This document shows positions 3,108 through 59,843 of a stretch of DNA of 64,000 nt, in pieces. Position numbers and translations under genes: made by a program. Origin of the DNA: Obrimoposthia wandeli (lineage: Eukaryota); contig CDROCS010002708.1 in the NCBI GenBank assembly GCA_977020255.1, positions 248,001 through 312,000 of the forward strand. The letters run 5' to 3'. Position 1 is the first letter of the stretch. Every line of letters begins with the position of its first letter. The notes beneath the pieces are model-generated. The model did no database searches. It was given only the letters and a program-made list of their open reading frames with translations, and was not told where the DNA came from.

Positions 3108-3370
3108 ATTTAAACGGTTTTCTTAATTTGATTTATATTGTTTAGTTTAATCAAAGTTTTAGATATATCTTACTCTAACTTTTTCTTATTTCGATTCTTT
3201 TTTAAGTTCAGCCTTATTTCTTATCATTGCTGACAGATCTCCTTATTTGTGATATTTTGGTGAATAAATGTATATTAAAAAAAGTATTTTATTATTATTC
3301 ATATTTGAGGGTTTTAAAAATAATTCAAAATAAAACATGTTATTTTTTAAAATATTTATTATAATACACA

Positions 3371-19916: not shown

Positions 19917-20031
19917 CCGAGTTCGAATTAATTCGTACAGAAAGTCTATTTCATCCTTCGCCAACAAATTTCTGCCGATAGAGTGGGAAGTGGAATCAAA
20001 AGCACTCAAAGACTCTTGAGTTCTACGGTAG
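19917..20031 (-). CDS. Probable upstream exon of the same unidentified gene
   Basis: ttttcAG acceptor, perfect GTAAGT donor, open frame YRRTQESLSAFDSTSHSIGRNLLAKDEIDFLYELIRTR. Linking exons between 19065 and 19917 could not be resolved. Confidence 0.5.
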
Positions 20032-20104
20032 CTGAAAATAGAAACAAGAATTGATGTCAGAATTTATTACAAGGTAATTAACTGCAAAAGTTGTGTTACT
20101 ATCA

Positions 20105-20485
20105 TAATTTAACCAATTTCACAATTTAACCAATTTCATAATTTAACCAATTTCACAATTTAACCAATTTCCTAATTTAACCAATTTCCTAATTTAACCA
20201 ATTTCATAATTTAACCAATTTCACAATTTAATCAATTTCATAATTTAACCAATTTTACAATTTAACCAATTTCATAATTTAACCAATTTCCTAATTTAAC
20301 CAATTTCACAATTTCCTAATTTAACCAATTTCCTAATTTAACCAATTTCACAATTTAACCAATTTCCTAATTTAACCAATTTCCTAATTTAACCAATTTC
20401 ACAATTTAATCAATTTCATAATTTAACCAATTTCACAATTTAATCAATTTCATAATTTAACCAATTTCATAATTTAACCAATTTC
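20105..20485. repeat. 18-bp minisatellite (AATTTAACCAATTTC + AC/AT/CT + A), about 21 units
   Basis: Directly visible tandem array with three main variants. Confidence 0.95.
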
Positions 20486-21288
20486 GATGAAGTTTGTCGA
20501 GAGAATCCGCAAGACGTAGCTTCTCAGATATCATTTCCTCGAATTCAAACATCATGCACAGAGCAAGGTCAGAAAAATATCCACCAGTTTCTTCCTCTTG
20601 TGAACAATTAAAGAACACCTTGGATAATAACCCTCTTTTTAACAAAAATTTTAAAGCTGAAATATGTTGTGACGGTGAAATTGTGGCGCTGCTATTTTAT
20701 TCTCAAACTTTTGTTGGTAAAATTCAGAGTTTTGAATCAATATGCTATGACGGAACATTTTAAATTGTTCCACAAATTTTTAGTCAGATATTTATTATTT
20801 TTGTAAAATTTGGACCAAGATTTCTACCAGTATTCTTCATTTTAATGAAATCAAAGCTCAGATCAAATTATATGTTGGTAATCAACCAAATCAAAGACAT
20901 GGTTTCAAGTTTTAATCCTTTATCATCCATCGGAGATTTTGAGAGCTCAAGTCTGAAGGCATCCAAGCAATGCTTTTCTCAACTGATTGCACAAGGGTGT
21001 TTTTCCCATTTTCGACAGGCTAACATCCGTAAACTTTGTGAAATGGGCCTCAGGAATTTTTATAAAATTAATAATAAAAAAGCCAACCAGTGGTTCCCAC
21101 TCATCATGGGTCTTCAATGTCTCCCAAGCAGCCAAAATATAGATTTTTATACTCAAATCACTCAGTTTAAGCCAGGAAACACAAGTCAAATTACAAAAAT
21201 TAATATGTATTTAGCTTATTATGAAAGGAATTGGCTGTCAAATACACCAATGACAGACCAAATACACCAAAATCGTGACTGCAGTTAA
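20486..21288 (+). pseudogene. MULE/Mutator DDE transposase remnant
   Basis: MHRARSEKYPP; DGTF*IVPQIFSQI; GDFESSSLKA...GCFSHFRQANIRK. These are MULE motifs (DGTFK, DFE, CxFHxxQ). In-frame stop at 20761-20763. Confidence 0.9.
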
Positions 21289-23990: not shown

Positions 23991-24844
23991 GAAAAGACGG
24001 AATCTTGAACGACAAATATTGTTTATTTACTCATAATTCAATTAAGGTGATCAGAACAAATATTAAAGGCTAAAGATTTTATTTTATTTTCCAGCAGAAA
24101 TACAGCTCAGATAAGTATTACAGATTTCTTCAAATGAATATTTTAGTAGTTTGTTACTGATTTGGTCACATTAATAAATTATCTCCACTCACTTTAAACT
24201 TTTAAAGTAGTGAAACAAATAAGAAATCATTTAAAGCTATTGCAAGGATAAAGGTGATTGTTTTAATTAATGTTTTTATAATATTATTCATCTGAATTTA
24301 TAAATATTATTTTTTTATAAATATTATTTTTGTAGTCATGAAAAATTTCTTTGTTGTGGACGCAAATTCAAGAAAATTTTATTATTTATTTTTTGTTGAC
24401 ATTATAAATGAATTTATAATACAGATATATCAAACACCTAAAATTCTAAATAAACTTTTTATTCCCATTTAATTTTAATTAATTTAAAATATAAACGATA
24501 TGTCGAATAACAAAATTTATACAACATATTGGTAAATAATTTTTCTTGATATATGTACACTTTTACTTTATTTATTTACAATTAAATTATAAACAAATTT
24601 ACAAATTTTTTCTTTAAAATAATATTACAAAAAATGATTGTTAATAAAAATATATTTATTAAACATATTTATTTAAATGTCATCATTCATATTTTATTTA
24701 TTTATAGCAAATGAATAAATTTGATTTTAATTATTTTATTATCTTGACTTGACTTTTTTTTTTCCATTTATTACGAAATAACATTATTATATAAATTAAA
24801 ACTTATCATAATTTTGTTAATATTTATTATATCAAATTTTTAGT

Positions 24845-25476
24845 ATCAATTTTATAAAACAATATAATCTTTGTGATAAATGTGATAAAATGTTTTTTTA
24901 TAAAAAACATCAAAAAATATTGACATTAAAATATTTAACTTTTAATTTGTAAGGTTGTTTCAAATTAAAAGTTCCACAATTTTTAAAAGAAGTTGGGGCC
25001 AAATATTTATCACTAAAAACACTACAAAAGATACATTTCTATAAATACATATTATTTAAAGGTTCTATACTTTTCAATATCCATATGATCTTTTTAAATT
25101 AAATCATATTTTATAGGTTAGCATTTAACTATAATTAAAGTTATAAAACATGAAATATCAATTTTATAAAACAATATAATTTTTGTGATAAATGTGATAA
25201 AATATTTTAATTTTTTTTGTAAAAACATCAATAAATATTGACATAAAAATATTTAACTTTTAACTTGTAAGGTTGTTTTAAATTAAAAGTTCCACAATTT
25301 TTAAAAGAAGTTGGGGACAAATATTTAACACTAAAAACACTACAAAAGATACATTTCAATAAATACATATTATTTAAAGCTTCTATACTTTTCAATATCC
25401 ATATGATCTTTTTAAATTAAATGATAGTTTATAGGTTTGTATTTAACTATAATCAAAGTTATAAAACATGAAATAT
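24845..25476. repeat. Direct tandem duplication of about 312 bp of AT-rich DNA
   Basis: atcaatttttataaaacaatataat...aaaacatgaaata occurs at 24845 and 25157 with scattered substitutions. Confidence 0.9.
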
Positions 25477-26589: not shown

Positions 26590-26602
26590 GTAGGGAGTAG
26601 GT

Positions 26603-26860
26603 GGAAGGATGGAGTCTAAGCCAATTTACCCCCCCCCCCCCTAAAGGGTGTCACTCCATAAGGATGTCACATCATAAAATATGTCTTGCCACACCATAAG
26701 GGTATATGTTGCCTCACCTTCGGTGACCCAACATATACCCTTATGGTATGGCAAGACACCTTTTATGGTGTGACACCCTTATGGAGTGACACCCTTTAGG
26801 AGGGAGGCGGGAGGCGGGGAGGGGAGGAGAGGGGTAAATTGGCTTAGACTCCATCCTTCC
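26603..26860. other. Terminal imperfect palindrome (hairpin) of the left TIR
   Basis: GGAAGGATGGAGTCTAAGCCAATTTACCCC...TCACC-TTC-GGTGA...GGGGTAAATTGGCTTAGACTCCATCCTTCC, loop at 26719-26721. Confidence 0.95.
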
Positions 26861-26902
26861 TTGATATACTACTATGGTCGTCCATAGTTTAAAGGGTCAA
26901 TT

Positions 26903-27125
26903 GGCTTAGTCTCCACCCTTCTTTTTGAGATATACCACTATGAAAGGGTAAAGTGGCTTAGTCTCCACCCTTCTTTTTGAGATATACCACTATGAAAGGG
27001 TAAAGTGGCTTAGTCTCCACCCTTCTTTTTGAGATATACCACTATGAAAGGGTAAAGTGGCTTAGTCTCCACCCTTCTTTTTGAGATATATCACTATGAA
27101 AGGGTAAAGTGGCTTAGTCTCCATC
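26903..27125 (+). repeat. 52-bp subterminal tandem repeat, 4 full units plus a partial one
   Basis: GGCTTAGTCTCCACCCTTCTTTTTGAGATATACCACTATGAAAGGGTAAAGT starts at 26903, 26955, 27007, 27059 and 27111 (partial). The right TIR (about 40295-40465) has 3 full inverted units. Confidence 0.95.
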
Positions 27126-27689
27126 CATCTTTTAGTGATCTAGTCTCCACCCTTCTTTTTGTGATCTAGTCCATAATGAAAATTTATGATAAAGTTCACA
27201 CTTAACAATTAAGAATGTATGACGTAATCATACACACACTATTCTATGTGAAAATCAAGGCTAAAGTTCACTCTTATCAGTTAAGGAATGTGGTTTTTAA
27301 CACACACACTATTCTATGTGAAAGTTTAGATCAAATTATTTTCCTAGGTTTTTTCACATTTATAGAATTATGATAAAATTTCTTTAAATAACTTCAATTA
27401 TATATTAAAATAAAATAAAATAAGAAAGAAGTCAGAGAATAATACAAAATTAAACACATTTATTATGTAATTTCATAATATCATCTTCAAACTTAAGTGA
27501 ATAACATTTACAAAGTAAGAAAGTCCATTCTTTATACATTCTTTTCGTTTCAACGACTAAGTTACAACGGAATTAATAGAAAATTAGTAAAAATATTAAT
27601 TTATTTGAATATTTGAATGAGAGTTTGAATAAATGAGAGGTAGAATGAATGTAAATGAATAAAATTATGCATGCAAGTATGAATGTCAT

Positions 27690-30600
27690 TTACAAGTAAG
27701 AGGGTTTAGCAAGTGAATGTAATTTAAAAATAAGAGTGTCGATAGTTTGATTGAATGCAAGTGTAATTTAGACTATAAGTAAATTAAAATAGAGTTTTTG
27801 TTGAATAAATTATAGTTAGATTGAATGCAAGTATGACGAGCAAGTGATTGATAGTTTGAATTTTCAATACAAGTAAGTGGGTTTAGCAAGTGAATGTAAT
27901 TTTAAAAAATAAGAGTGTCGATAGTTTGATTGAATGCAAGTGTAATTTAGACTATAAGTAAATTAAAATAGAGTTTTTGTTGAATAAATTATAGTTAGAT
28001 TGAATGCAAGTATGACGAGCAAGTGTTTGATAGTTTGAATTTTCAATACAAGTAAGTGGGTTTAGCAAGTGAATGTAATTTTAAAAATAAGAGTGTCGAT
28101 AGTTTGATTGAATGCAAGTGTAATTTAGACTATAAGTAAATTAAAATAGAGTTTTTGTTGAATAAATTATAGTTAGATTGAATGCAAGTATGACGAGCAA
28201 GTGATTGATAGTTTGAATTTTCAATACAAGTAAGTGGGTTTAGCAAGTGAATGTAATTTTAAAAATAAGAGTGTCGATAGTTTGATTGAATGCAAGTGTA
28301 ATTTAGACTATAAGTAAATTAAAATAGAGTTTTTGTTGAATAAATTATAGTTAGATTGAATGCAAGTATGACGAGCAAGTGTTTGATAGTTTGAATTTTC
28401 AATACAAGTAAGTGGGTTTAGCAAGTGAATGTAATTTTAAAAAATAAGAGTGTCGATAGTTTGATTGAATGCAAGTGTAATTTAGACTATAAGTAAATTA
28501 AAATAGAGTTTTTGTTGAATAAATTATAGTTAGATTGAATGCAAGTATGACGAGCAAGTGATTTGATAGTTTGAATTTTCAATACAAGTAAGTGGGTTTA
28601 GCAAGTGAATGTAATTTTAAAAAATAAGAGTGTCGATAGTTTGATTGAATGCAAGTGTAATTTAGACTATAAGTAAATTAAAATAGAGTTTTTGTTGAAT
28701 AAATTATAGTTAGATTGAATGCAAGTATGACGAGCAAGTGATTGATAGTTTGAATTTTCAATACAAGTAAGTGGGTTTAGCAAGTGAATGTAATTTTAAA
28801 AAATAAGAGTGTCGATAGTTTGATTGAATGCAAGTGTAATTTAGACTATAAGTAAATTAAAATAGAGTTTTTGTTGAATAAATTATAGTTAGATTGAATG
28901 CAAGTATGACGAGCAAGTGTTTGATAGTTTGAATTTTCAATACAAGTAAGTGGGTTTAGCAAGTGAATGTAATTTTAAAAAATAAGAGTGTCGATAGTTT
29001 GATTGAATGCAAGTGTAATTTAGACTATAAGTAAATTAAAATAGAGTTTTTGTTGAATAAATTATAGTTAGATTGAATGCAAGTATGACGAGCAAGTGTT
29101 TGATAGTTTGAATTTTCAATACAAGTAAGTGGGTTTAGCAAGTGAATGTAATTTTAAAAAATAAGAGTGTCGATAGTTTGATTGAATGCAAGTGTAATTT
29201 AGACTATAAGTAAATTAAAATAGAGTTTTTGTTGAATAAATTATAGTTAGATTGAATGCAAGTATGACGAGCAAGTGTTTGATAGTTTGAATTTTCAATA
29301 CAAGTAAGTGGGTTTAGCAAGTGAATGTAATTTTAAAAAATAAGAGTGTCGATAGTTTGATTGAATGCAAGTGTAATTTAGACTATAAGTAAATTAAAAT
29401 AGAGTTTTTGTTGAATAAATTATAGTTAGATTGAATGCAAGTATGACGAGCAAGTGATTGATAGTTTGAATTTTCAATACAAGTAAGTGGGTTTAGCAAG
29501 TGAATATAATTTTAAAAAATAAGAGTGTCGATAGTTTGATTGAATGCAAGTGTAATTTAGACTATAAGTAAATTAAAATAGAGTTTTTGTTGAATAAATT
29601 ATAGTTAGATTGAATGCAAGTATGACGAGCAAGTGATTTGATAGTTTGAATTTTCAATACAAGTAAGTGGGTTTAGCAAGTGAATGTAATTTTAAAAAAT
29701 AAGAGTGTCGATAGTTTGATTGAATGCAAGTGTAATTTAGACTATAAGTAAATTAAAATAGAGTTTTGTTGAATAAATTATAGTTAGATTGAATGCAAGT
29801 ATGACGAGCAAGTGTTTGATAGTTTGAATTTTCAATACAAGTAAGTGGGTTTAGCAAGTGAATGTAATTTTAAAAAATAAGAGTGTCGATAGTTTGATTG
29901 AATGCAAGTGTAATTTAGACTATAAGTAAATTAAAATAGAGTTTTTGTTGAATAAATTATAGTTAGATTGAATGCAAGTATGACGAGCAAGTGATTGATA
30001 GTTTGAATTTTCAATACAAGTAAGTGGGTTTAGCAAGTGAATGTAATTTTAAAAAATAAGAGTGTCGATAGTTTGATTGAATGCAAGTGTAATTTAGACT
30101 ATAAGTAAATTAAAATAGAGTTTTTGTTGAATAAATTATAGTTAGATTGAATGCAAGTATGACGAGCAAGTGTTTGATAGTTTGAATTTTCAATACAAGT
30201 AAGTGGGTTTAGCAAGTGAATGTAATTTTAAAAAATAAGAGTGTCGATAGTTTGATTGAATGCAAGTGTAATTTAGACTATAAGTAAATTAAAATAGAGT
30301 TTTTGTTGAATAAATTATAGTTAGATTGAATGCAAGTATGACGAGCAAGTGTTGATAGTTTGAATTTTCAATACAAGTAAGTGGGTTTAGCAAGTGAATG
30401 TAATTTTAAAAAATAAGAGTGTCGATAGTTTGATTGAATGCAAGTGTAATTTAGACTATAAGTAAATTAAAATAGAGTTTTTGTTGAATAAATTATAGTT
30501 AGATTGAATGCAAGTATGACGAGCAAGTGTTTGATAGTTTGAATTTTCAATACAAGTAAGTGGGTTTAGCAAGTGAATGTAATTTTAAAAAATAAGAGTG

Positions 30601-33076
30601 TCGATAGTTTGATTGAATGCAAGTGTAATTTAGACTATAAGTAAATTAAAATAGAGTTTTTGTTGAATAAATTATAGTTAGATTGAATGCAAGTATGACG
30701 AGCAAGTGATTGATAGTTTGAATTTTCAATACAAGTAAGTGGGTTTAGCAAGTGAATGTAATTTTAAAAAATAAGAGTGTCGATAGTTTGATTGAATGCA
30801 AGTGTAATTTAGACTATAAGTAAATTAAAATAGAGTTTTTGTTGAATAAATTATAGTTAGATTGAATGCAAGTATGACGAGCAAGTGATTGATAGTTTGA
30901 ATTTTCAATACAAGTAAGTGGGTTTAGCAAGTGAATGTAATTTTAAAAAATAAGAGTGTCGATAGTTTGATTGAATGCAAGTGTAATTTAGACTATAAGT
31001 AAATTAAAATAGAGTTTTTGTTGAATAAATTATAGTTAGATTGAATGCAAGTATGACGAGCAAGTGTTTGATAGTTTGAATTTTCAATACAAGTAAGTGG
31101 GTTTAGCAAGTGAATGTAATTTTAAAAAATAAGAGTGTCGATAGTTTGATTGAATGCAAGTGTAATTTAGACTATAAGTAAATTAAAATAGAGTTTTTGT
31201 TGAATAAATTATAGTTAGATTGAATGCAAGTATGACGAGCAAGTGATTGATAGTTTGAATTTTCAATACAAGTAAGTGGGTTTAGCAAGTGAATGTAATT
31301 TTAAAAAATAAGAGTGTCGATAGTTTGATTGAATGCAAGTGTAATTTAGACTATAAGTAAATTAAAATAGAGTTTTTGTTGAATAAATTATAGTTAGATT
31401 GAATGCAAGTATGACGAGCAAGTGTTTGATAGTTTGAATTTTCAATACAAGTAAGTGGGTTTAGCAAGTGAATGTAATTTTAAAAAATAAGAGTGTCGAT
31501 AGTTTGATTGAATGCAAGTGTAATTTAGACTATAAGTAAATTAAAATAGAGTTTTTGTTGAATAAATTATAGTTAGATTGAATGCAAGTATGACGAGCAA
31601 GTGATTTGATAGTTTGAATTTTCAATACAAGTAAGTGGGTTTAGCAAGTGAATGTAATTTTAAAAAAATAAGAGTGTCGATAGTTTGATTGAATGCAAGT
31701 GTAATTTAGACTATAAGTAAATTAAAATAGAGTTTTTGTTGAATAAATTATAGTTAGATTGAATGCAAGTATGACGAGCAAGTGTTTGATAGTTTGAATT
31801 TTCAATACAAGTAAGTGGGTTTAGCAAGTGAATGTAATTTTAAAAAATAAGAGTGTCGATAGTTTGATTGAATGCAAGTGTAATTTAGACTATAAGTAAA
31901 TTAAAATAGAGTTTTTGTTGAATAAATTATAGTTAGATTGAATGCAAGTATGACGAGCAAGTGTTTGATAGTTTGAATTTTCAATACAAGTAAGTGGGTT
32001 TAGCAAGTGAATGTAATTTTAAAAAATAAGAGTGTCGATAGTTTGATTGAATGCAAGTGTAATTTAGACTATAAGTAAATTAAAATAGAGTTTTGTTGAA
32101 TAAATTATAGTTAGATTGAATGCAAGTATGACGAGCAAGTGATTGATAGTTTGAATTTTCAATACAAGTAAGTGGGTTTAGCAAGTGAATGTAATTTTAA
32201 AAATAAGAGTGTCGATAGTTTGATTGAATGCAAGTGTAATTTAGACTATAAGTAAATTAAAATAGAGTTTTTGTTGAATAAATTATAGTTAGATTGAATG
32301 CAAGTATGACGAGCAAGTGATTTGATAGTTTGAATTTTCAATACAAGTAAGTGGGTTTAGCAAGTGAATGTAATTTTAAAAATAAGAGTGTCGATAGTTT
32401 GATTGAATGCAAGTGTAATTTAGACTATAAGTAAATTAAAATAGAGTTTTTGTTGAATAAATTATAGTTAGATTGAATGCAAGTATGACGAGCAAGTGAT
32501 TGATAGTTTGAATTTTCAATACAAGTAAGTGGGTTTAGCAAGTGAATATAATTTTAAAAAATAAGAGTGTCGATAGTTTGATTGAATGCAAGTGTAATTT
32601 AGACTATAAGTAAATTAAAATAGAGTTTTTGTTGAATAAATTATAGTTAGATTGAATGCAAGTATGACGAGCAAGTGATTGATAGTTTGAATTTTCAATA
32701 CAAGCAGATAGTTTGATTGAATGCAAGTGTAATTTAGACTATAAGTAAATTAAAATAGAGTTTTTGTTGAATAAATTATAGTTAGATTGAATGCAAGTAT
32801 GACGAGCAAGTGTTTGATAGTTTGAATTTTCAATACAAGTAAGTGGGTTTAGCAAGTGAATGTAATTTTAAAAAATAAGAGTGTCGATAGTTTGATTGAA
32901 TGCAAGTGTAATTTAGACTATAAGTAAATTAAAATAGAGTTTTTGTTGAATAAATTATAGTTAGATTGAATGCAAGTATGACGAACAAGTGATTGATAGT
33001 TTGAATTTTCAATACAAGTAAGTGGGTTTAGCAAGTGAATGTAATTTTAAAAAAATAAGAGTGTCGATAGTTTGAT
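27690..33076 (+). repeat. Satellite 1: about 179-bp unit, about 30 highly homogeneous copies
   Basis: gtcgatagtttgattgaatgcaagtgtaatttagactataag... recurs at 27738, 27917, 28095 ... 33063. One internally deleted unit near 32700. Confidence 0.97.
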
Positions 33077-33369
33077 TTTTTTTTTTAAATTACTTGATAT
33101 TTTTGCCATTGTCCGTTTAATATAATATGAATATTCAATTTATTTCTTCAAAAATTCATTTTTTTTATATGTTAAATAATATTTCTTTACCACATTATTG
33201 TGGTTTTTATCAAGTGATTTTAACTTTAAACTATAAAAATATTTTAATTATAAAGTTAGTTGCTGTACCCCGCCCACTGTATATAACATAAATTTCAAAT
33301 ATAAAGTACTATTAAGTTTATTATTTCGAATAGTAAATGATTTTTTCGAGTTATTTAATTTTGTTTACT

Positions 33370-36300
33370 AGACATTCGAAAATTTACTTGTAAACTACAA
33401 TATTTATTTGTTGTTGTATATATTTAGTTTAAAATGTTGTAAGTTATTACTTTAATATAATTTTCAACAAAAACTTCAAGTAGTTTACTTATTAAACATA
33501 AGTTTAATGTTTTGTACAATAAATTGACTTGTAAACATAATTTATTTTGATATATTTTCAATTTAATATGTTGTAAGTTATTACTTTAATATAATTTACA
33601 ACAAAAACTTCAAGTAGTTTACTTATTAAACATAAGTTTAATGTTTTGTACAATAAATTGACTTGTAAACATAATTTATTTTGATATATTTTCAATTTAA
33701 TATGTTGTAAGTTATTACTTTAATATAATTTACAACAAAAACTTCTAGTAATTTACTTGTAAACTACAATATGTATTTGTTGTTGTATATATTTAGTTTA
33801 AAATGTTGTAAGTTATTACTTTAATATAATTTTCAACAAAAATTTCAAGTAGTTTACTTATTAAACATAAGTTTAATGTTTTGTACAATAAATTGACTTG
33901 TAAACATAATTTATTTTTGATATATTTTCAATTTAATATGTTGTAAGTTATTACTTTAATATAATTTACAACAAAAACTTCAAGTAGTTTACTTATTAAA
34001 CATAAGTTTAATGTTTTGTACAATAAATTGACTTGTAAACATAATTTATTTTGATATATTTTCAATTTACTATGTTGTAAGTTATTACTTTAATATAATT
34101 TACAACAAAAACTTCAAGTAATTTACTTGTAAACTACAATATTTATTTGTTGTTGTATATATTTAGTTTAAAATGTTGTAAGTTATTACTTTAATATAAT
34201 TTTCAACAAAAATTTCAAGTAGTTTACTTATTAAACATAAGTTTAATGTTTTGTACAATAAATTGACTTGTAAACATAATTTATTTTTGATATATTTTCA
34301 ATTTAATATGTTGTAAGTTATTACTTTAATATAATTTACAACAAAAACTTCAAGTAGTTTACTTATTAAACATAAGTTTAATGTTTTGTACAATAAATTG
34401 ACTTGTAAACATAATTTATTTTGATATATTTTCAATTTACTATGTTGTAAGTTATTACTTTAATATAATTTACAACAAAAACTTCAAGTAATTTACTTGT
34501 AAACTACAATATTTATTTGTTGTTGTATATATTTAGTTTAAAATGTTGTAAGTTATTACTTTAATATAATTTTCAACAAAAACTTCAAGTAGTTTACTTA
34601 TTAAACATAAGTTTAATGTTTTGTACAATAAATTGACTTGTAAACATAATTTATTTTGATATATTTTCAATTTAATATGTTGTAAGTTATTACTTTAATA
34701 TAATTTACAACAAAAACTTCAAGTTGTTTACTTATTAAACTTAAGTTTAATGTTTTGTACAATAAATTGACTTGTAAACATAATTTATTTTGATATATTT
34801 TCAATTTAATATGTTGTAAGTTATTACTTTAATATAATTTACAACAAAAACTTCAAGTTGTTTACTTATTAAACATAAGTTTAATGTTTTGTACAATAAA
34901 TTGACTTGTAAACATAATTTATTTTGATATATTTTCAATTTAATATGTTGTAAGTTATTACTTTAATATAATTTACAACAAAAACTTCAAGTAGTTTACT
35001 TATTAAACATAAGTTTAATGTTTTGTACAATAAATTGACTTGTAAACATAATTTATTTTGATATATTTTCAATTTAATATGTTGTAAGTTATTACTTTAA
35101 TATAATTTACAACAAAAACTTCTAGTAATTTACTTGTAAACTATAATATTTATTTGTTGTTGTATATATTTAGTTTAAAATGTTGTAAGTTATTACTTTA
35201 ATATAATTTTCAACAAAAATTTCAAGTAGTTTACTTATTAAACATAAGTTTAATGTTTTGTACAATAAATTGACTTGTAAACATAATTTATTTTTGATAT
35301 ATTTTCAATTTAATATGTTGTAAGTTATTACTTTAATATAATTTACAACAAAAACTTCTAGTAATTTACTTGTAAACTATAATATTTATTTGTTGTTGTA
35401 TATATTTAGTTTAAAATGTTGTAAGTTATTACTTTAATATAATTTACAACAAAAACTTCAAGTAGTTTACTTATTAAACATAAGTTTAATGTTTTGTACA
35501 ATAAATTGACTTGTAAACATAATTTATTTTTTGATATATTTTCAATTTAATATGTTGTAAGTTATTACTTTAATATAATTTTCAACAAAAACTTCAAGTA
35601 GTTTACTTATTAAACATAAGTTTAATGTTTTGTACAATAAATTGACTTGTAAACATAATTTATTTTGATATATTTTCAATTTAATATGTTGTAAGTTATT
35701 ACTTTAATATAATTTACAACAAAAAAAAAACTTCAAGTAGTTTACTTATTAAACATAAGTTTAATGTTTTGTACAATAAATTGACTTGTAAACATAATTT
35801 ATTTTGATATATTTTCAATTTAATATGTTGTAAGTTATTACTTTAATATAATTTACAACAAAAACTTCAAGTAGTTTACTTACTAAACATAAGTTTAATG
35901 TTTTGTACAATAAATTGACTTGTAAACATAATTTATTTTGATATATTTTCAATTTAATATGTTGTAAGTTATTACTTTAATATAATTTACAACAAAAACT
36001 TCTAGTAATTTACTTGTAAACTACAATATTTATTTGTTGTTGTATATATTTAGTTTAAAATGTTGTTAGTTATTACTTTAATATAATTTTCAACAAAAAC
36101 TTCGAGTAGTTTACTTATTAAACATAAGTTTAATGTTTTGTACAATAAATTGACTTGTTAACATAATATATTTATGCATATATTAACTTTAATATGTTGT
36201 AACTTATTACTTTAATATAATTTTCAACAAAAACGTCAAGTAGTTTACTTATTAATCATAAGTTTAATGTTTTGTACAATAATTTGACTTGTAAACATAA

Positions 36301-39300
36301 TTTATTTTGATATATTTTCAATTTAATATGTTGTAAGTTATTACTTTAATATAATTTACAACAAAAACTTCAAGTAATTTACTTGTAAACTACAATATTT
36401 ATTTGTTGTTGTATATATTTAGTTTAAAATGTTGTAAGTTATTACTTTAATATAATTTTCAACAAAAATTTCAAGTAATTTACTTAATAATCATAATATT
36501 TATGATTTGATCAATAAATTGACTTGTAAACATAATATAATTTGCATATTTTCAATTTAATATATTGTAAGTTATTACTATAATATTACATTACATAAAA
36601 AAAGTAATTGATAGTTTACTATCGTTTACAATAAATTTATGCATATATTCACTTTAATATGTTGTAAGTTATTACTTTATTATAATTTTCAACAAAAAAA
36701 AACTTCAAGTAGTTTACTTATTAAACATAAGTTTAATGTTTTGTACAATAAATTGATTTGTAAACATAATTTATTTTGGTATATTTTCAATTTATATGTT
36801 GTAAGTTATTACTTTAATATAATTTACAACCAAAACTTCAAGAAATTTACTTAATAATCATAATTTTAATGATTTGATCAATAAATTGACTTGTAAACAT
36901 AATATAATTTGCATATTTTCAATTTAACACGTTGTAAGTTAATACTGTAATATTTCATTACATAAAAAGTAATTCATAGTTTACTGTCGTTTACTATAAA
37001 TTTACTTGTAAACATAATATATTTATGCATTATTCACTTTAATACGTTTTAAGTTATTAGAATTTGTGTTCTTGTATTCAATGATTAACTTTTATTAAAC
37101 TATTATATAACATTGACACTCTTATTTTTAAAAAATTGACTTGTAAACATAATTTATTTTGATATATTTTCAATTTAATATGTTGTAAGTTATTACTTTA
37201 ATATAATTTACAACAAAAACTTCTAGTAATTTACTTGTAAACTACAATATTTATTTGTTGTTGCATATATTTAGTTTAAAATGTTGTAAGTTATTACTTT
37301 AATATAATTTTCAACAAAAATTTCAAGTAGTTTACTTATTAAACATAAGTTTAATGTTTTGTACAATAAATTGACTTGTAAACATAATTTATTTTTGATA
37401 TATTTTCAATTTAATATGTTGTAAGTTATTACTTTAATATAATTTACAACAAAAACTTCAAGTAGTTTACTTATTAAACATAAGTTTAATGTTTTGTACA
37501 ATAAATTGACTTGTAAACATAATTTATTTTGATATATTTTCAATTTACTATGTTGTAAGTTATTACTTTAATATAATTTACAACAAAAACTTCAAGTAAT
37601 TTACTTGTAAACTACAATATTTATTTGTTGTTGTATATATTTAGTTTAAAATGTTGTAAGTTATTACTTTAATATAATTTTCAACAAAAACTTCAAGTAG
37701 TTTACTTATTAAACATAAGTTTAATGTTTTGTACAATAAATTGACTTGTAAACATAATTTATTTTGATATATTTTCAATTTAATATGTTGTAAGTTATTA
37801 CTTTAATATAATTTACAACAAAAAACTTCAAGTAGTTTACTTATTAAACTTAAGTTTAATGTTTTGTACAATAAATTGACTTGTAAACATAATTTATTTT
37901 GATATATTTTCAATTTAATATGTTGTAAGTTATTACTTTAATATAATTTACAACAAAAAACTTCAAGTAGTTTACTTATTAAACTTAAGTTTAATGTTTT
38001 GTACAATAAATTGACTTGTAAACATAATTTATTTTGATATATTTTCAATTTAATATGTTGTAAGTTATTACTTTAATATAATTTACAACAAAAACTTCAA
38101 GTTGTTTACTTATTAAACATAAGTTTAATGTTTTGTACAATAAATTGACTTGTAAACATAATTTATTTTGATATATTTTCAATTTAATATGTTGTAAGTT
38201 ATTACTTTAATATAATTTACAACAAAAAACTTCAAGTAGTTTACTTATTAAACTTAAGTTTAATGTTTTGTACAATAAATTGACTTGTAAACATAATTTA
38301 TTTTGATATATTTTCAATTTAATATGTTGTAAGTTATTACTTTAATATAATTTACAACAAAAACTTCAAGTTGTTTACTTATTAAACATAAGTTTAATGT
38401 TTTGTACAATAAATTGACTTGTAAACATAATTTATTTTGATATATTTTCAATTTAATATGTTGTAAGTTATTACTTTAATATAATTTACAACAAAAACTT
38501 CAAGTAGTTTACTTATTAAACTTAAGTTTAATGTTTTGTACAATAAATTGACTTGTAAACATAATTTATTTTGATATATTTTCAATTTAATATGTTGTAA
38601 GTTATTACTTTAATATAATTTACAACAAAAACTTCAAGTAGTTTACTTATTAAACATAAGTTTAATGTTTTGTACAATAAATTGACTTGTAAACATAATT
38701 TATTTTGATATATTTTCAATTTAATATGTTGTAAGTTATTACTTTAATATAATTTACAACAAAAACTTCTAGTAATTTACTTGTAAACTACAATATTTAT
38801 TTGTTGTTGTATATATTTAGTTTAAAATGTTGTAAGTTATTACTTTAATATAATTTTCAACAAAAATTTCAAGTAGTTTACTTATTAAACATAAGTTTAA
38901 TGTTTTGTACAATAAATTGACTTGTAAACATAATTTATTTTGATATATTTTCAATTTAATATGTTGTAAGTTATTACTTTAATATAATTTACAACAAAAA
39001 CTTCAAGTAATTTACTTGTAAACTACAATATTTATTTTGTTGTTGTATATATTCAGTTTAAAATGTTGTAAGTTAATACTTTAATATAATTTACAACCAA
39101 ATCTTCAAGTAATTTACTTAATAATCATAATATTAATGATTTGATCAATAAATTGACTTGTAAACATAATATAATTTGCATATTTTCAATTTAATATATT
39201 GTAAGTTATTACTATAATATTACATTACATAAAAAAAAAGTAATTGATAGTTTACTATCGTTTACAATAAATTTATGCATATATTCACTTTAATATGTTG

Positions 39301-39400
39301 TAAGTTATTACTTTATTATAATTTTCAACAAAAACTTCAAGTAGTTTACTTATTAAACATAAGTTTAATGTTTTGTACAATAAATTGACTTGTAAACATA
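33370..39400. repeat. Satellite 2: very AT-rich array of about 134-bp (A) and about 101-bp (B) monomers
   Basis: A starts acttcaagtagtttacttattaaac and B starts acttc(a/t)agtaatttacttgtaaact. Order is often A-A-B, with diverged blocks at about 36470-37130 and 39090-39500. Confidence 0.95.
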
Positions 39401-39498
39401 ATATATTTATGCATTATTCACTTTAATACGTTTTAAGTTATTAGAATTTGTGTTCTTGTATTCAATGATTAACTTTTATTAAACTATTATATAACATT

Positions 39499-40747
39499 GA
39501 CACTCTTATTTTTAAAAATTACATTCACTTGCTAAACCCACTTACTTGTATTGAAAATTCAAACTATCAATCACTTGTTCGTCATACTTGCATTCAATCT
39601 AACTATAATTTATTCAACAAAAACTCTATTTTAATTTACTTATAGTCTAAATTACACTTGCATTCAATCAAACTATCGACACTCTTATTTTTAAATTACA
39701 TTCACTTGCTAAACCCTCTTACTTGTAAATGACATTCATACTTGCATGCATAATTTTATTCATTTACATTCATTCTACCTCTCATTTATTCAAACTCTCA
39801 TTCAAATATTCAAATAAATTAATATTTTTACTAATTTTCTATTAATTCCGTTGTAACTTAGTCGTTGAAACGAAAAGAATGTATAAAGAATGGACTTTCT
39901 TACTTTGTAAATGTTATTCACTTAAGTTTGAAGATGATATTATGAAATTACATAATAAATGTGTTTAATTTTGTATTATTCTCTGACTTCTTTCTTATTT
40001 TATTTTATTTTAATATATAATTGAAGTTATTTAAAGAAATTTTATCATAATTCTATAAATGTGAAAAAAAACCTAGGAAAATAATTTGATCTAAACTTTC
40101 ACATAGAATAGTGTGTGTGTTAAAAACCACATTCCTTAACTGATAAGAGTGAACTTTAGCCTTGATTTTCACATAGAATAGTGTGTGTATGATTACGTCA
40201 TACATTCTTAATTGTTAAGTGTGAACTTTATCATAAATTTTCATTATGGACTAGATCACAAAAAGAAGGGTGGAGACTAGATCACTAAAAGATGGATGGA
40301 GACTAAGCCACTTTACCCTTTCATAGTGGTATATCTCAAAAAGAAGGGTGGAGACTAAGCCACTTTACCCTTTCATAGTGGTATATCTCAAAAAGAAGGG
40401 TGGAGACTAAGCCACTTTACCCTTTCATAGTGGTATATCTCAAAAAGAAGGGTGGAGACTAAGCCAATTGACCCTTTAAACTATGGACGACCATAGTAGT
40501 ATATCAAGGAAGGATGGAGTCTAAGCCAATTTACCCCCCCCCCCCTAAAGGGTGTCACTCCATAAGGATGTCACATCATAAAAGGTGTCTTGCCATACCA
40601 TAAGGGTATATGTTGGGTCACCGAAGGTGAGGCAACATATACCCTTATGGTGTGGCAAGACATATTTTATGATGTGACATCCTTATGGAGTGACACCCTT
40701 TAGGGGGGGGGGGGTAAATTGGCTTAGACTCCATCCTTCCACCTACT
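39499..40747 (-). repeat. Right terminal inverted repeat (about 1.25 kb)
   Basis: Matches the left TIR and includes about 1.2 inverted units of the 179-bp satellite at its inner end. Confidence 0.95.
40508..40740. other. Terminal imperfect palindrome (hairpin) of the right TIR
   Basis: Same palindrome, with a TCACC-GAA-GGTGA loop at 40623-40625. Confidence 0.95.
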
Positions 40748-40753
40748 GTAGGG

Positions 40754-42028: not shown

Positions 42029-42211
42029 TACAGTAATTATTCACCTATAAGGGGTCCCACCTATAAGGGTGTCCGGTCACCGAAAATTTCACGCTTCACC
42101 TATAATAGTACCTTTCCAAGCTTTTAAATAATGCATCTATAAGTGATTCGGTGTCGGTCTCTCTCAAAAACATGTTTTAATGAATACTCTTACAGGTGAA
42201 TAATTACTGTA
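42029..42211. mobile_element. Tc1/mariner-type MITE
   Basis: Perfect TIRs TACAGTAATTATTCACCT and AGGTGAATAATTACTGTA with TA ends. It lies 20 nt from the NDUFA10 exon 7 acceptor. Confidence 0.85.
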
Positions 42212-50800: not shown

Positions 50801-51170
50801 TTATTATATACCGTAGGCACACATTTTGTTTTTATTATAATTATTTGTGTCTCATCAAAATAAAATACAAAATAAAATCAATTTTCATACCGAATTGATT
50901 AAGAATTTTGTGCCATATTAAATATATGTTATATTTTATTCTTTTTTGTCAATGCTGGGTCCAATGTCATAGTTCAGAGAGATACAAAAGAAAGTTTTAT
51001 CAATAAGTTTAAATGAAAATAGTAAAAATTAAAACTAGCTCAACCTTTTCATTCTGAAGCATTTTAAAAGCTTTACCAAATCTATATTTCTTAAATTAAT
51101 TGATTAATTAAAACAATCTTACATTTAAAAAAATTCCTAAAGTTTTACTATACCGAAAATAGTATTCAAC

Positions 51171-51257
51171 CTGAATCGCTCAACATTTTTTGTCTATTCA
51201 GCGTCAATGCCATCACGTGGTCCGACCAAACGGACCGTTTCTGCACGAATCCTTGCC
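51171..51257 (-). CDS. NDUFA10: NDUFA10 exon 2
   Basis: Follows a 42-nt in-frame intron (51258-51299, ctgactcAG acceptor). GQGFVQKRSVWSD corresponds to the conserved GQGVVLERSIFSD. Confidence 0.88.
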
Positions 51258-51299
51258 CTGAGTCAGGCAAATAACATACATTAACCAAAGTAATCCAAC

Positions 51300-51783
51300 C
51301 TGTATTATAGATGTTACACATTGCCTTGCACGTGTTAAAATATCGCCAAAGATAAATATGCTTTTGCAGTAAAAGCGGACGACCATTGTGAATTGGATCT
51401 TTGTCATTAAACAACATCTCCCTAGTATAAACTCGGGAATACGGTGGCAACATGTCATTATATTTGCGCAAATCAACAGGTGCTTTTCCTAGTGGAATCA
51501 CGTGCAAATCCTCTTCCGAAACATCATCCACATACAGCATTCCAAAATAGTCCGCTAACTTCTGAGCCAATTTTCCTTTTCCCGTTCCTACATTACCTTC
51601 CACTGCGATATGTCTGGAATTTTGATCCATCATACCTTGTATGGGATGCGTATGAATATGGGCAGGCCAGTTATAAAAATCAAACAGGTACTTAGGTTTA
51701 ACTTTGTTAGCTACTTCAGGAGTAAACTTATTTTTAAGTGTTCTTACTATAAGAACGCGAGATACATACACATTCCGAAACAT
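51300..51783 (-). CDS. NDUFA10: NADH dehydrogenase 1 alpha subcomplex subunit 10 (dNK fold), exon 1
   Basis: ATG at 51783, Arg-rich presequence, IAVEGNVGTGKGKLA P-loop, LQKHIYLWRY. Donor GTtgga at 51299. Confidence 0.9.
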
Positions 51784-55682: not shown

Positions 55683-56399
55683 TCGAACTTATACTGGAAT
55701 TGTGGCAAATTGAAGACCTGTTTATCAAAATCCAATGAACATGAAGAAAATTCGAGGAACAGCTCAGATAAGGTTTGAAAAGACAAAGAGAAACGAAAAC
55801 TATAAGTGACGACAATGTTATTGCTGCAGTGAGGTTGGACATATAAGACGAGAATGTCCTCACAATCATTGTTCATTCTGCTGACGAAATGGACATGCCA
55901 TCAACCAATACTACCGGAAACTTGATCAAGGTAATAAAGGATACGCAAAAATATGGCTATCAGCGAGATCAGCCACTACCAAATGGAAGTTTAGGACAAG
56001 AGCGAAGATACCAGCGAGATTATGTTCCAGTCCATCAGCTAAAAAATCAGCAGAGATACCGAGGATCTGACCAGAACAAGAAGCCAGTTGCTGTCATGGA
56101 TGACGACTACATGACTGTGGATAAACAGAATCACAGCCAGGCAAAATACAAGTTGGCTCCATCAAACAAGGAAATTATCGGAGCTCTGAATCTAATGTAA
56201 GTAGTTATGTAAATAATTTGAAGACAATTAAGTATGACTGTAATAAAGAATTTATGGATTGTGAGTTTGATTTAAATAGTTTAAATATTAATGTTTTATG
56301 TGATACTGAGAATGGTGAAAATATTAAAATAAATAATGATGAGGTAGATTTTATTGAAAATGATTTAGTTAATGATGTTTTTTTAATTAACAAAAAATA

Positions 56400-56760
56400 T
56401 GATTTAAGTTTTTTAACTGTTGGTTATGATAATAGCGATGGTAGAACGTTCATTAACATTGAGTTGAATAATATAAAAATAAGTTGTTTATTAGATACTG
56501 GTGCTACAGTAAGTGTAATAAGTAAAGATGTTTTAGATATAACTAATTGTAATATGAATAAGATTATGAATTAAAATAACGTTTCATGTGCTAATGGAAG
56601 TAGATTAGAAATATTACGTACATTAAGTATAGCAATAAAACACAAAAATAAAAACATATTTGGATTTTTCTATGTTGCAAAAGAAATTAAATCGTGCATA
56701 ATTTTAGGAATCGATATTTTGGAAAAGTTGAATTTTAAATTAGCCGACTTTGATCGTTTG
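56400..56760 (+). pseudogene. Retroviral-type aspartic protease remnant
   Basis: TFINIELNNIKISCLLDTGATVSVISK (DTG active site) followed by ILGIDIL. Confidence 0.85.
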
Positions 56761-58983: not shown

Positions 58984-59399
58984 ATGAGTGAAATTTCAGT
59001 AAATCAATTATATATTGGTAATTATCGAGATGCTTTTGATGAAACTATACTTTTGAAATCCGAATTCACTCATGTAATCAAAACATCTATAGTGGATAAG
59101 ATATCTTATAAGAAATTAAAGTATACTTATGTTTTTGTAAACTCAAAATTAAGAGAAATAATAATTACATATTATAAACAGACTAATAATATATTTAAAG
59201 AAACTATCAAAACTGGTGGTAAGATTTTAGTGTGTGATCATTATGGTAGTTTACATGATGCTTGCATTGTTATTGCATTTTATCTCCTTCAATGGGTGTT
59301 AGAGCTGCTTTCAATATTTTTAAATCTAAACGGAGTATTGCTGCTCTTAATGAAGTTATGCTTAATCAAATACGTATTTTTAATCGTTATGATATATAA
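58984..59399 (+). pseudogene. Atypical dual-specificity phosphatase-fold gene, catalytic motif degenerate, one frameshift
   Basis: LYIGNYRDAFD...THVI, GGKILVCDHYGSLHDACIVIAFYL in place of VLVHCxxGxSRS, then shifted MGVRAAFNIFKSKRSIAALNEVMLNQI (DSP C-terminal helix). Confidence 0.75.
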
Positions 59400-59843
59400 A
59401 TTTTATTCGTCTTTATTAGTCAGTGTCTTTGTTAATCAGTAGCCAATCAGATTTTACTTGTATAGTATATAAGCAGATTACGTTTTACTCTTTCTTTATT
59501 ATTAGTATGTCTACTCCCAATTATTTCAAGCAAGATGCTGGCAAGGCAGTGAAGAGCTACATCTCAAAAAATGTTATAGAAGATGTCCTGAAACTCATTG
59601 ATGCATCAGATCTACCCTGGAGGAGCTTGTGAGAAGAATGGTTCACAACAAGGCATTCGATCGTCTCATTCTGGGGTACAATCAGAAGAAAGAAGATTAT
59701 GTACAGAAAGAAGAGTACGCGAAGAAAAAAAGCTTTTTCTGGGAGAAGAGTTTTTTACTGTTTGTTGTTGGATGTATTCTAATAAAATATTTTAAATAGC
59801 TTAGTCTTATAAACATTATCTCAACAATCTAATATTTTTCAAT

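Follow-up and report, generated by a model that had tools for sequence, protein, structure and literature searches.

The window, by which we mean the whole 64,000-nucleotide stretch of Obrimoposthia wandeli DNA analysed here, contains a non-autonomous, gene-less derivative of a Polinton/Maverick. No ATG-initiated open reading frame (ORF) of at least 100 aa lies inside this copy, and pPolB is absent from it. The features of the copy, including its target-site duplications (TSDs) and TIRs, are:

26590..26595 (+): left TSD, GTAGGG (6 bp)
26596..40747: non-coding Polinton/Maverick copy, 14,152 bp, with the ends AGTAGGT...ACCTACT, which are common to coding copies
26596..27922 (+): left TIR, approximately 1.3 kb
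26596..26602 (+): 7-nt tip outside the hairpin, the complement of which stays unpaired as the 3' tail when the strand folds
26603..26860: left long hairpin, loop at 26719-26721
26603-26632 / 26831-26860: basal stem of the left hairpin (approximate)
26712-26713 / 26727-26728: CC/CC bubble of the left hairpin
26802..26834 (+): G-rich tract in the left inner arm, a G-quadruplex by pattern match only, bulging opposite the poly-C of the outer arm
26891..27133 (+): 52-bp tandem repeats, 4.7 copies, with a core that repeats the inner basal arm once more
27691..33077 (+): 179-bp tandem array, approximately 30 copies, in place of genes
33381..39443 (+): 134/101-bp AT-rich tandem array, likewise occupying the gene region
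39496..40747 (-): right TIR
40287..40477 (-): 52-bp tandem repeats in the right TIR, 3.7 copies
40508..40740: right long hairpin, loop at 40623-40625, inner arm converted toward the outer arm
40741..40747 (+): unpaired 7-nt 3' tail of the right end, ACCTACT
40748..40753 (+): right TSD, GTAGGG (6 bp)

Approximately the first 890 nt are shared between the window copy and a coding copy. The genes of the window copy have been replaced by about 11.7 kb of satellite, composed of the 179-bp and 134/101-bp arrays (27691-39443), and a comparable gene-less copy (L031/L032) measures 12.5 kb. The near-constant length of the element may point to a size constraint, and the element may act as a spreader of satellites. 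Outside the element, a short repeat at 42040-42085 of the window (CACCTATAAGGG..., with GGTCACCGAA) resembles the hairpin units, and similar sequence adjoins the tip in another copy (L056). A 17-bp minisatellite and a 318-bp tandem duplication lie upstream of the element (at 20012-20550 and 24844-25476), and host-side ORFs give weak Pfam matches to deoxynucleoside kinase (51166-51783, -), retroviral aspartyl protease (56254-56574, +), and dual-specificity phosphatase (58984-59442, +).

Querying the organism's 1.35-Gb genome with the left end of the window element returned many pairs of tips about 12 kb apart. Coding copies have the same ends, measure approximately 12.1 kb, and encode pPolB, an integrase, a packaging ATPase, and a capsid-like protein; seven of eight full copies have ORFs, and perfect 6-bp TSDs flank seven of the eight. 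Among paired ends generally, 22 of 23 show a 6-bp TSD. The TIR measures about 0.8 kb in a coding copy versus about 1.3 kb in the window copy. The tip pattern has 11,241 matches in the genome, corresponding to approximately 5,600 copies. PF03175 (pPolB) scores above the cut-off at 91 places and is linked to these tips in 57 of the 66 stretches aligned. Because the pPolB stretches from 66 copies are 95.9–100% identical to one reference copy, the family is young. No further Polinton family was found among the PF03175 matches retrieved, all of which are at least 95.9% identical and belong to this one family.

In the coding copy, the integrase matches PF00665 (rve; E 9e-10) and the packaging ATPase, of the A32 type, matches PF04665 above the cut-off. 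An endonuclease VII-like domain (PF02945, above the cut-off) lies inside the pPolB ORF (L035:2996-3355, -); its motif, CxxC...DHDH...CxxCN, is one that we take to be a His-Me finger. Endonuclease VII-like domains occur in one pPolB group of Polintons, and this one could act on cruciforms or bubbles. In coding copies, a 154-aa ORF (L035:4905-5369, +) matches TATA-binding protein (PF00352, E 6e-12). The capsid-like ORF (406 aa) has 165 homologues and, in searches at the level of sequence only, no match in Pfam or among PDB sequences. As a tentative lead, a homologue 60% identical to it scores 0.98 against Atlas clusters in which 30% and 65% of members carry the DJR-like domain PF21738, the recognition value falling short of the tool's line. 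A search for an adenain-like protease returned no match in the family, and the control likewise remained without any match. Judged from pPolB, rve, the A32-type ATPase, the 6-bp TSD, and the long TIRs, the family is a Polinton/Maverick.

The TIRs of Polintons/Mavericks were reportedly described by Kapitonov and Jurka in 2006. The present family shares with these elements the 6-bp TSD, a tip of the AGT type, long TIRs, pPolB, the rve integrase, the ATPase, and a capsid-like ORF. It differs in its ORF resembling TATA-binding protein and in its tip, which is AGTAGG rather than (AGT)2 or (AG)3 (PMC8097293). No relatives in other organisms were found in the viral contigs scanned, and a metagenome scan yielded 70 loci related to the family. 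No recognisable terminus or TIR pair was seen in these loci, all of which were scanned for hairpins and seven for inverted repeats. One of them (L211) has an 86-nt palindrome-like stretch by the start of its contig with no visible tip and was left out of the counts. In another metagenome relative, what looks by eye like a protease-like ORF (L158:1850-2220) lies right behind the capsid-like gene; none was detected in the family described here.

The initial annotation of the window described a fold-back hairpin 7 nt inside each end, with one apex, one set of mismatches, and one isomer at both, and suggested folding both ends. Both palindromes are indeed found at 26603-26860 and 40508-40740, and the apex TCACC-TTC-GGTGA is present at both in the same isomer, together with the CC/CC, C/A, and TA/CC mismatches. 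Of the 115 positions of the right hairpin, 110 pair in a gapless alignment; the left pairs 109 of 116 and has 23 extra G-rich bases in its inner arm. Folded as DNA, both 3'-terminal strands form strong structures (-137 and -119.6 kcal/mol) far beyond those of 200 shuffles (z-scores -27 and -22), each leaving a 7-nt 3' tail unpaired. The TA/CC mismatch is private to the window copy (1 of the 30 closest ends, by eye) yet stands at both its ends, implying TIR-to-TIR copying before insertion. Conversion toward the outer arm has affected the inner arm at the right end (a plain poly-G plus two substitutions) and not the one at the left. Short-read contigs from four runs of one sample span the apex, so the apex is not a long-read artefact, with the proviso that this sample is possibly the assembly's own source and hence offers no independent support. 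In most subfamilies, a longer G-quadruplex-like tract in the inner arm persists opposite a short poly-C despite arm conversion.

Across the genome, a degenerate apex pattern occurs at 3,214 sites (compared with the 11,241 tips), and thousands of ends thus have the palindrome in common. The apex 25-mer of the window (TTC loop, CC/CC) occurs 1,010 times. The most numerous apex counted is a perfectly paired one with a TCT/AGA loop (1,264 sites), and the loops met across subfamilies are GAA, GGA, AGA, ATA, and GGT, which do not maintain a conserved GNA closure. Both the bubbles and the GNA loop, present at the two ends of the window copy, are therefore marks of subfamilies rather than constants of the family. 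When the first 100 tips in contig order were classified, 26 had an intact hairpin or apex, 28 had partial hairpins (remnants), 32 had only a basal stem of about 30 bp around direct 16–23-nt repeats (hereafter the loop class), 12 had no detectable stem, and two stayed unclassified. Inspected by eye, the 12 stem-less tips comprise about six that are truly stemless, five that are truncated, and one with a gapped stem. The contingency that other family members might lack the palindrome, named in the initial annotation as a refutation, is thus realised in part: 44 of these 100 tips belong to classes with no central palindrome, and one copy flanked by a TSD (described next) lacks a fold-back at both ends.

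Copies lacking the long hairpin have inserted. Loop-class copies show matching ends and a TSD in seven of eight pairs, and a 13.3-kb pPolB-bearing copy (L349/L405) flanked by the TSD GCCTAT has no fold-back at either end, its best basal mate being 12/27 at both. At the opposite ends of four more loop-class or stemless copies, three stretches had no tip and one had a different element. Because hairpin-less copies are flanked by TSDs, insertion needs no long hairpin and, in some copies, no stem; the long hairpin is dispensable for insertion and is not family-wide. We had considered that the hairpin is required for mobility, in which case deletions would never affect both ends of one copy, as held in six pairs. 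Two copies (L239/L240 and L295/L296) in which one hairpin deletion is common to both ends and the TSD is kept overturned this idea, as did the loop-class and stemless copies.

Breakpoints of hairpin deletions are scattered rather than gathered at one cut site, and where the palindrome is perfect, assembly error may account for some of them. The exact apex is retained in 51 of 60 bubble-type ends (the window subfamily) versus 13 of 44 poly-G-type ends. Interruptions near a palindrome's centre stabilise it, and the difference in retention fits this rule, with age and assembly error as confounders. Among individual loci, a 108-bp mini-element (L274, G000:C20:80374-80481) consists of two tips and one partial hairpin with a 6-bp duplication (GTTAGG), and at L311 (G000:C31:930144-930290) a family member is inserted in the hairpin of another, just beyond the apex.

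The two arms of the hairpin change together. We compared 244 distinct ends, which are kin, so that the counts below are non-independent and the p-values for covariation are overstated. In long-hairpin ends, the outer arm matches the first inner copy of the basal unit better than the second at nt 8 (118/131 vs 39/127), at nt 14 (96/131 vs 3/127), and at a 5-nt site before the C-run (102/131 vs 60/127), with no clear difference at a 5-nt site after TCT (92/131 vs 85/127). The AAGCC state is coupled between arms: the outer/inner tables are 69/0/3/59 in long-hairpin ends, 10/1/2/21 in the loop class, and 31/0/3/24 in deleted ends. The first paired position is nt 8 in 31 of 34 loop-class ends with a stem and in 118 of 131 ends with the long hairpin. 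Arm conversions are seen in both directions (the right end of the window copy; L079, L082, and L088). Template switching is reported to create stems, homogenise arms, and invert spacers (PMC8794818, PMC8604942). As it reportedly gives such patterns in the absence of selection, the covariation indicates that the arms pair in vivo and says nothing of whether the pairing is useful.

The arms themselves are made of units that belong to the element. The outer arm of the long hairpin is built from the units that loop-class ends carry as direct repeats, and the inner arm is their reverse complement. Five intermediate ends (L336, L377, and L409–L411), three of them from among the first 100 matches listed, turn back one unit further in and have loop-class sequence at the apex. 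Long-hairpin copies are younger than loop-class copies: among copies dated as the best Pfam scorers rather than at random, the median nearest-neighbour distance in pPolB is 1.27% in the loop class (n=11) versus 0.42% in long-hairpin copies (n=25, leaving out seven copies picked for their likeness to the window; p = 3e-5). The window subfamily is among the youngest, with a median of 0.21%, seven of its 12 copies having been picked for likeness to the window. Divergence between left and right TIRs is noisy and separates the classes poorly (medians 1.8% in 13 pairs vs 2.4% in eight pairs).

In the ingroup tree, five of 63 inner branches are well supported. With three distant outgroups the root falls, unsupported, among long-hairpin copies, and a single origin of the long hairpin is compatible with the test without being demonstrated by it (p-AU 0.32). 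In our own reading, root-to-tip lengths seem more even when the root is placed among loop-class copies. The youngest lineages all carry the hairpin, so a purely neutral account must invoke hitch-hiking. On balance, we lean toward the view that the hairpin is a recent addition at the level of subfamilies, the order of steps being inferred and unrooted.

Taking the end classes, intermediates, covariation, isomer bias (see below), and age difference together, we propose the following account. Replication of the element most likely follows the established model of ordinary protein priming, with the AGTAG tip as the start. The end would originally have had a tip followed by direct 16–23-nt repeats and no stem. 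The ~30 nt that follow the tip would then have been copied in inverted form further in, producing a basal stem from nt 8. Copying of the repeat array back on itself would have generated the full palindrome, and the apex would later have been shortened, with changes in loop and bubbles. The likely engine is switching of the polymerase between templates on displaced single strands, which would also keep the two arms matched, while copying between TIRs would keep the two ends alike. Rare inversions and frequent deletions would be side effects of a long palindrome, damped by the CC/CC bubble. We therefore favour, with somewhat more belief than doubt, a scenario in which template switching recently built, and maintains, an optional terminal palindrome in a protein-primed Polinton.

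The initial annotation instead hinted at a parvovirus-like variant, in which the hairpin would prime synthesis and be nicked and inverted in every round of replication, and suggested looking for flip and flop isomers. A long imperfect palindrome with bubbles is what such replication would use, flipped ends do occur, and the same idea has been put forward for protist virophages and PLVs (bioRxiv 10.64898/2026.07.28.741278). However, ends are strongly biased toward one isomer. For the window-type apex, 33 of 33 end pairs less than 20 kb apart (among the first 100 of 1,010 occurrences listed) are in one isomer, and the tip is on the same side in 30 of 30 loci inspected by eye; for the perfect apex with the TCT loop, the two ends agree in 20 of 21 pairs and a single isomer accounts for 29 of 30 loci. 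Across the whole genome, the G-rich tract of the inner arm lies in its normal place 545 times and in the outer place three times, and these three represent one full flip, one flip plus deletion, and one partial conversion, i.e. two flips. Among the ends retrieved, excluding loci fetched as suspected flips, four of 56 perfect-apex ends and none of 70 bubble-type ends are flipped (p = 0.037). In AAV, by comparison, the ITRs show flip and flop independently (PMC11575299). Neither a HUH Rep nickase nor an SF3 helicase was found in the 13 ORF translations (at least 100 aa) of two coding copies; pPolB is present, and hairpin-less copies have inserted. The unpaired 3' end, the missing Rep domain, and the isomer bias together make rolling-hairpin replication unlikely; we regard it as largely refuted and give it very little credence. 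The left end of autonomous parvoviruses follows a resolution scheme that preserves one isomer, and the isomer counts, taken alone, would be compatible with a scheme of this kind.

More serious is the possibility that the palindrome, whatever its origin by the steps above, has been selected for folding back. The fold-back might rebuild a local duplex origin on the displaced strand beside the free 7-nt 3' tail, a suggestion that we hold to be tenable and rather doubtful; pPolB with its terminal-protein domain might then re-initiate without a panhandle, giving hairpin lineages an edge in the recent expansion, which we likewise rate as less likely than not. Pairing that starts precisely at nt 8, with nt 8 itself covarying, would suit this reading, as would the youngest lineages carrying the hairpin and the window subfamily, among the youngest, having a GNA loop on the 3'-terminal strand and keeping its apex. 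In Streptomyces telomeres, hairpins closed by GCA loops occur together with protein priming at a free 3' end (PMC4513846), and panhandles are said to lack direct evidence (PMC11886824). Against it, hairpin-less and stemless copies have inserted with TSDs, the most numerous apex has a non-GNA loop, the boundary at nt 8 possibly stems from a single event, and the support comes from sequence. A role for the hairpin as a replication origin or protein-binding platform is putative. A further reading is that the repeats are duplex binding sites for integrase or pPolB, or that a cruciform is cut by the endonuclease VII-like domain, with strand folding incidental. One inverted copy at the tip faces several direct copies in the 52-bp array, the basal arm being the inverted 52-bp core, and the PF02945 domain in pPolB with its CxxC and DHDH residues would provide a nuclease. 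Yet at three of the four sites compared, the tip agrees more often with the first inner copy than with the second, which argues for pairing of arms; loop-class and stemless ends lack the 52-bp array and have inserted; and the scattered breakpoints do not mark a cut site. We judge this reading unlikely. In some ends (e.g. L051 and L056) the arms are noisy in the way that consensus errors make palindromes noisy, as would be expected if the hairpin were an assembly artefact; a different suspicion, voiced in the initial annotation, was that an unrelated MITE had nested in each end. Both suggestions are opposed by the thousands of ends that differ in their flanks and TSDs, by paired changes specific to subfamilies, by the short-read contigs spanning the apex, and by arms made from the element's own repeat units. 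As the source of the hairpin, either is refuted and is the least credible of the readings; artefact stays viable only for the rate of deletion.

Terminal palindromes are already in print for protist virophages and PLVs. In endogenous virophages and PLVs of Halocafeteria seosinensis, palindromes in the TIRs adjoin the TSD, and hairpin priming is proposed there, with accidental origin as an alternative and a call for tests (bioRxiv 10.64898/2026.07.28.741278). The likeness to the present family lies in TIR palindromes next to the TSD in integrase-bearing relatives. The differences are that the palindrome measures 52 nt in the subtype drawn there and occurs mostly in non-pPolB protist elements, whereas here it measures 230–260 nt in a pPolB element, and that isomer counts, hairpin-less relatives, and intermediates are available here and argue against hairpin priming. 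The main text of a survey of vertebrate Mavericks contains no match for ‘hairpin’ or ‘palindrom’ (PMC8097293). Our literature search on Polinton hairpins returned no account for animal Polintons and only the Halocafeteria preprint; an earlier mention is possible.

Other systems resemble the family in part. Streptomyces telomeres, patched by Tap and Tpg, also have 3'-strand hairpins with GNA-type loops beside an exposed protein-priming end, but theirs are several, short, conserved, and bound by Tap, whereas the hairpin here is single, long, recent, and dispensable (PMC4513846). The ITRs of parvoviruses and AAV are likewise terminal palindromes with asymmetric marks that can invert; unlike them, the ends described here have no paired 3' primer, no Rep found, a strong isomer bias, and no need of the hairpin (PMC11575299). 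Adenovirus and PRD1 share protein priming on displaced strands, with copying between TIRs restoring homology, but their panhandle anneals end to end, whereas each end here can also fold on itself (PMC11886824). Template switching at quasi-palindromes gives one-step stems, homogenised arms, and inverted loops, as here, although on short repeats in host genes rather than on terminal arms of ~115 bp in an element that replicates itself (PMC8794818, PMC8604942).

How displaced strands re-initiate in Polintons and other protein-primed genomes is unsettled, the panhandle being a model that is described as lacking direct evidence (PMC11886824). A family of approximately 5,600 copies permits a sequence-only test of the hairpin priming proposed for related elements: the isomer counts speak against rolling-hairpin replication, and the hairpin-less relatives make the structure optional. 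The family also documents, in a detail that is seldom available, how a long terminal palindrome arose within about 2% divergence, and in it a bubble near the apex accompanies greater stability. Its value lies in the size of this natural series, which runs, inside a single young family, from stemless ends to a bubbled palindrome. It is conceivable, though we would not expect it, that a self-folding end drove the latest expansion and that the stages from no stem through basal stem and full palindrome to a bubbled, GNA-capped one have been preserved; if so, these stages would show how virus-like hairpin ends arise.
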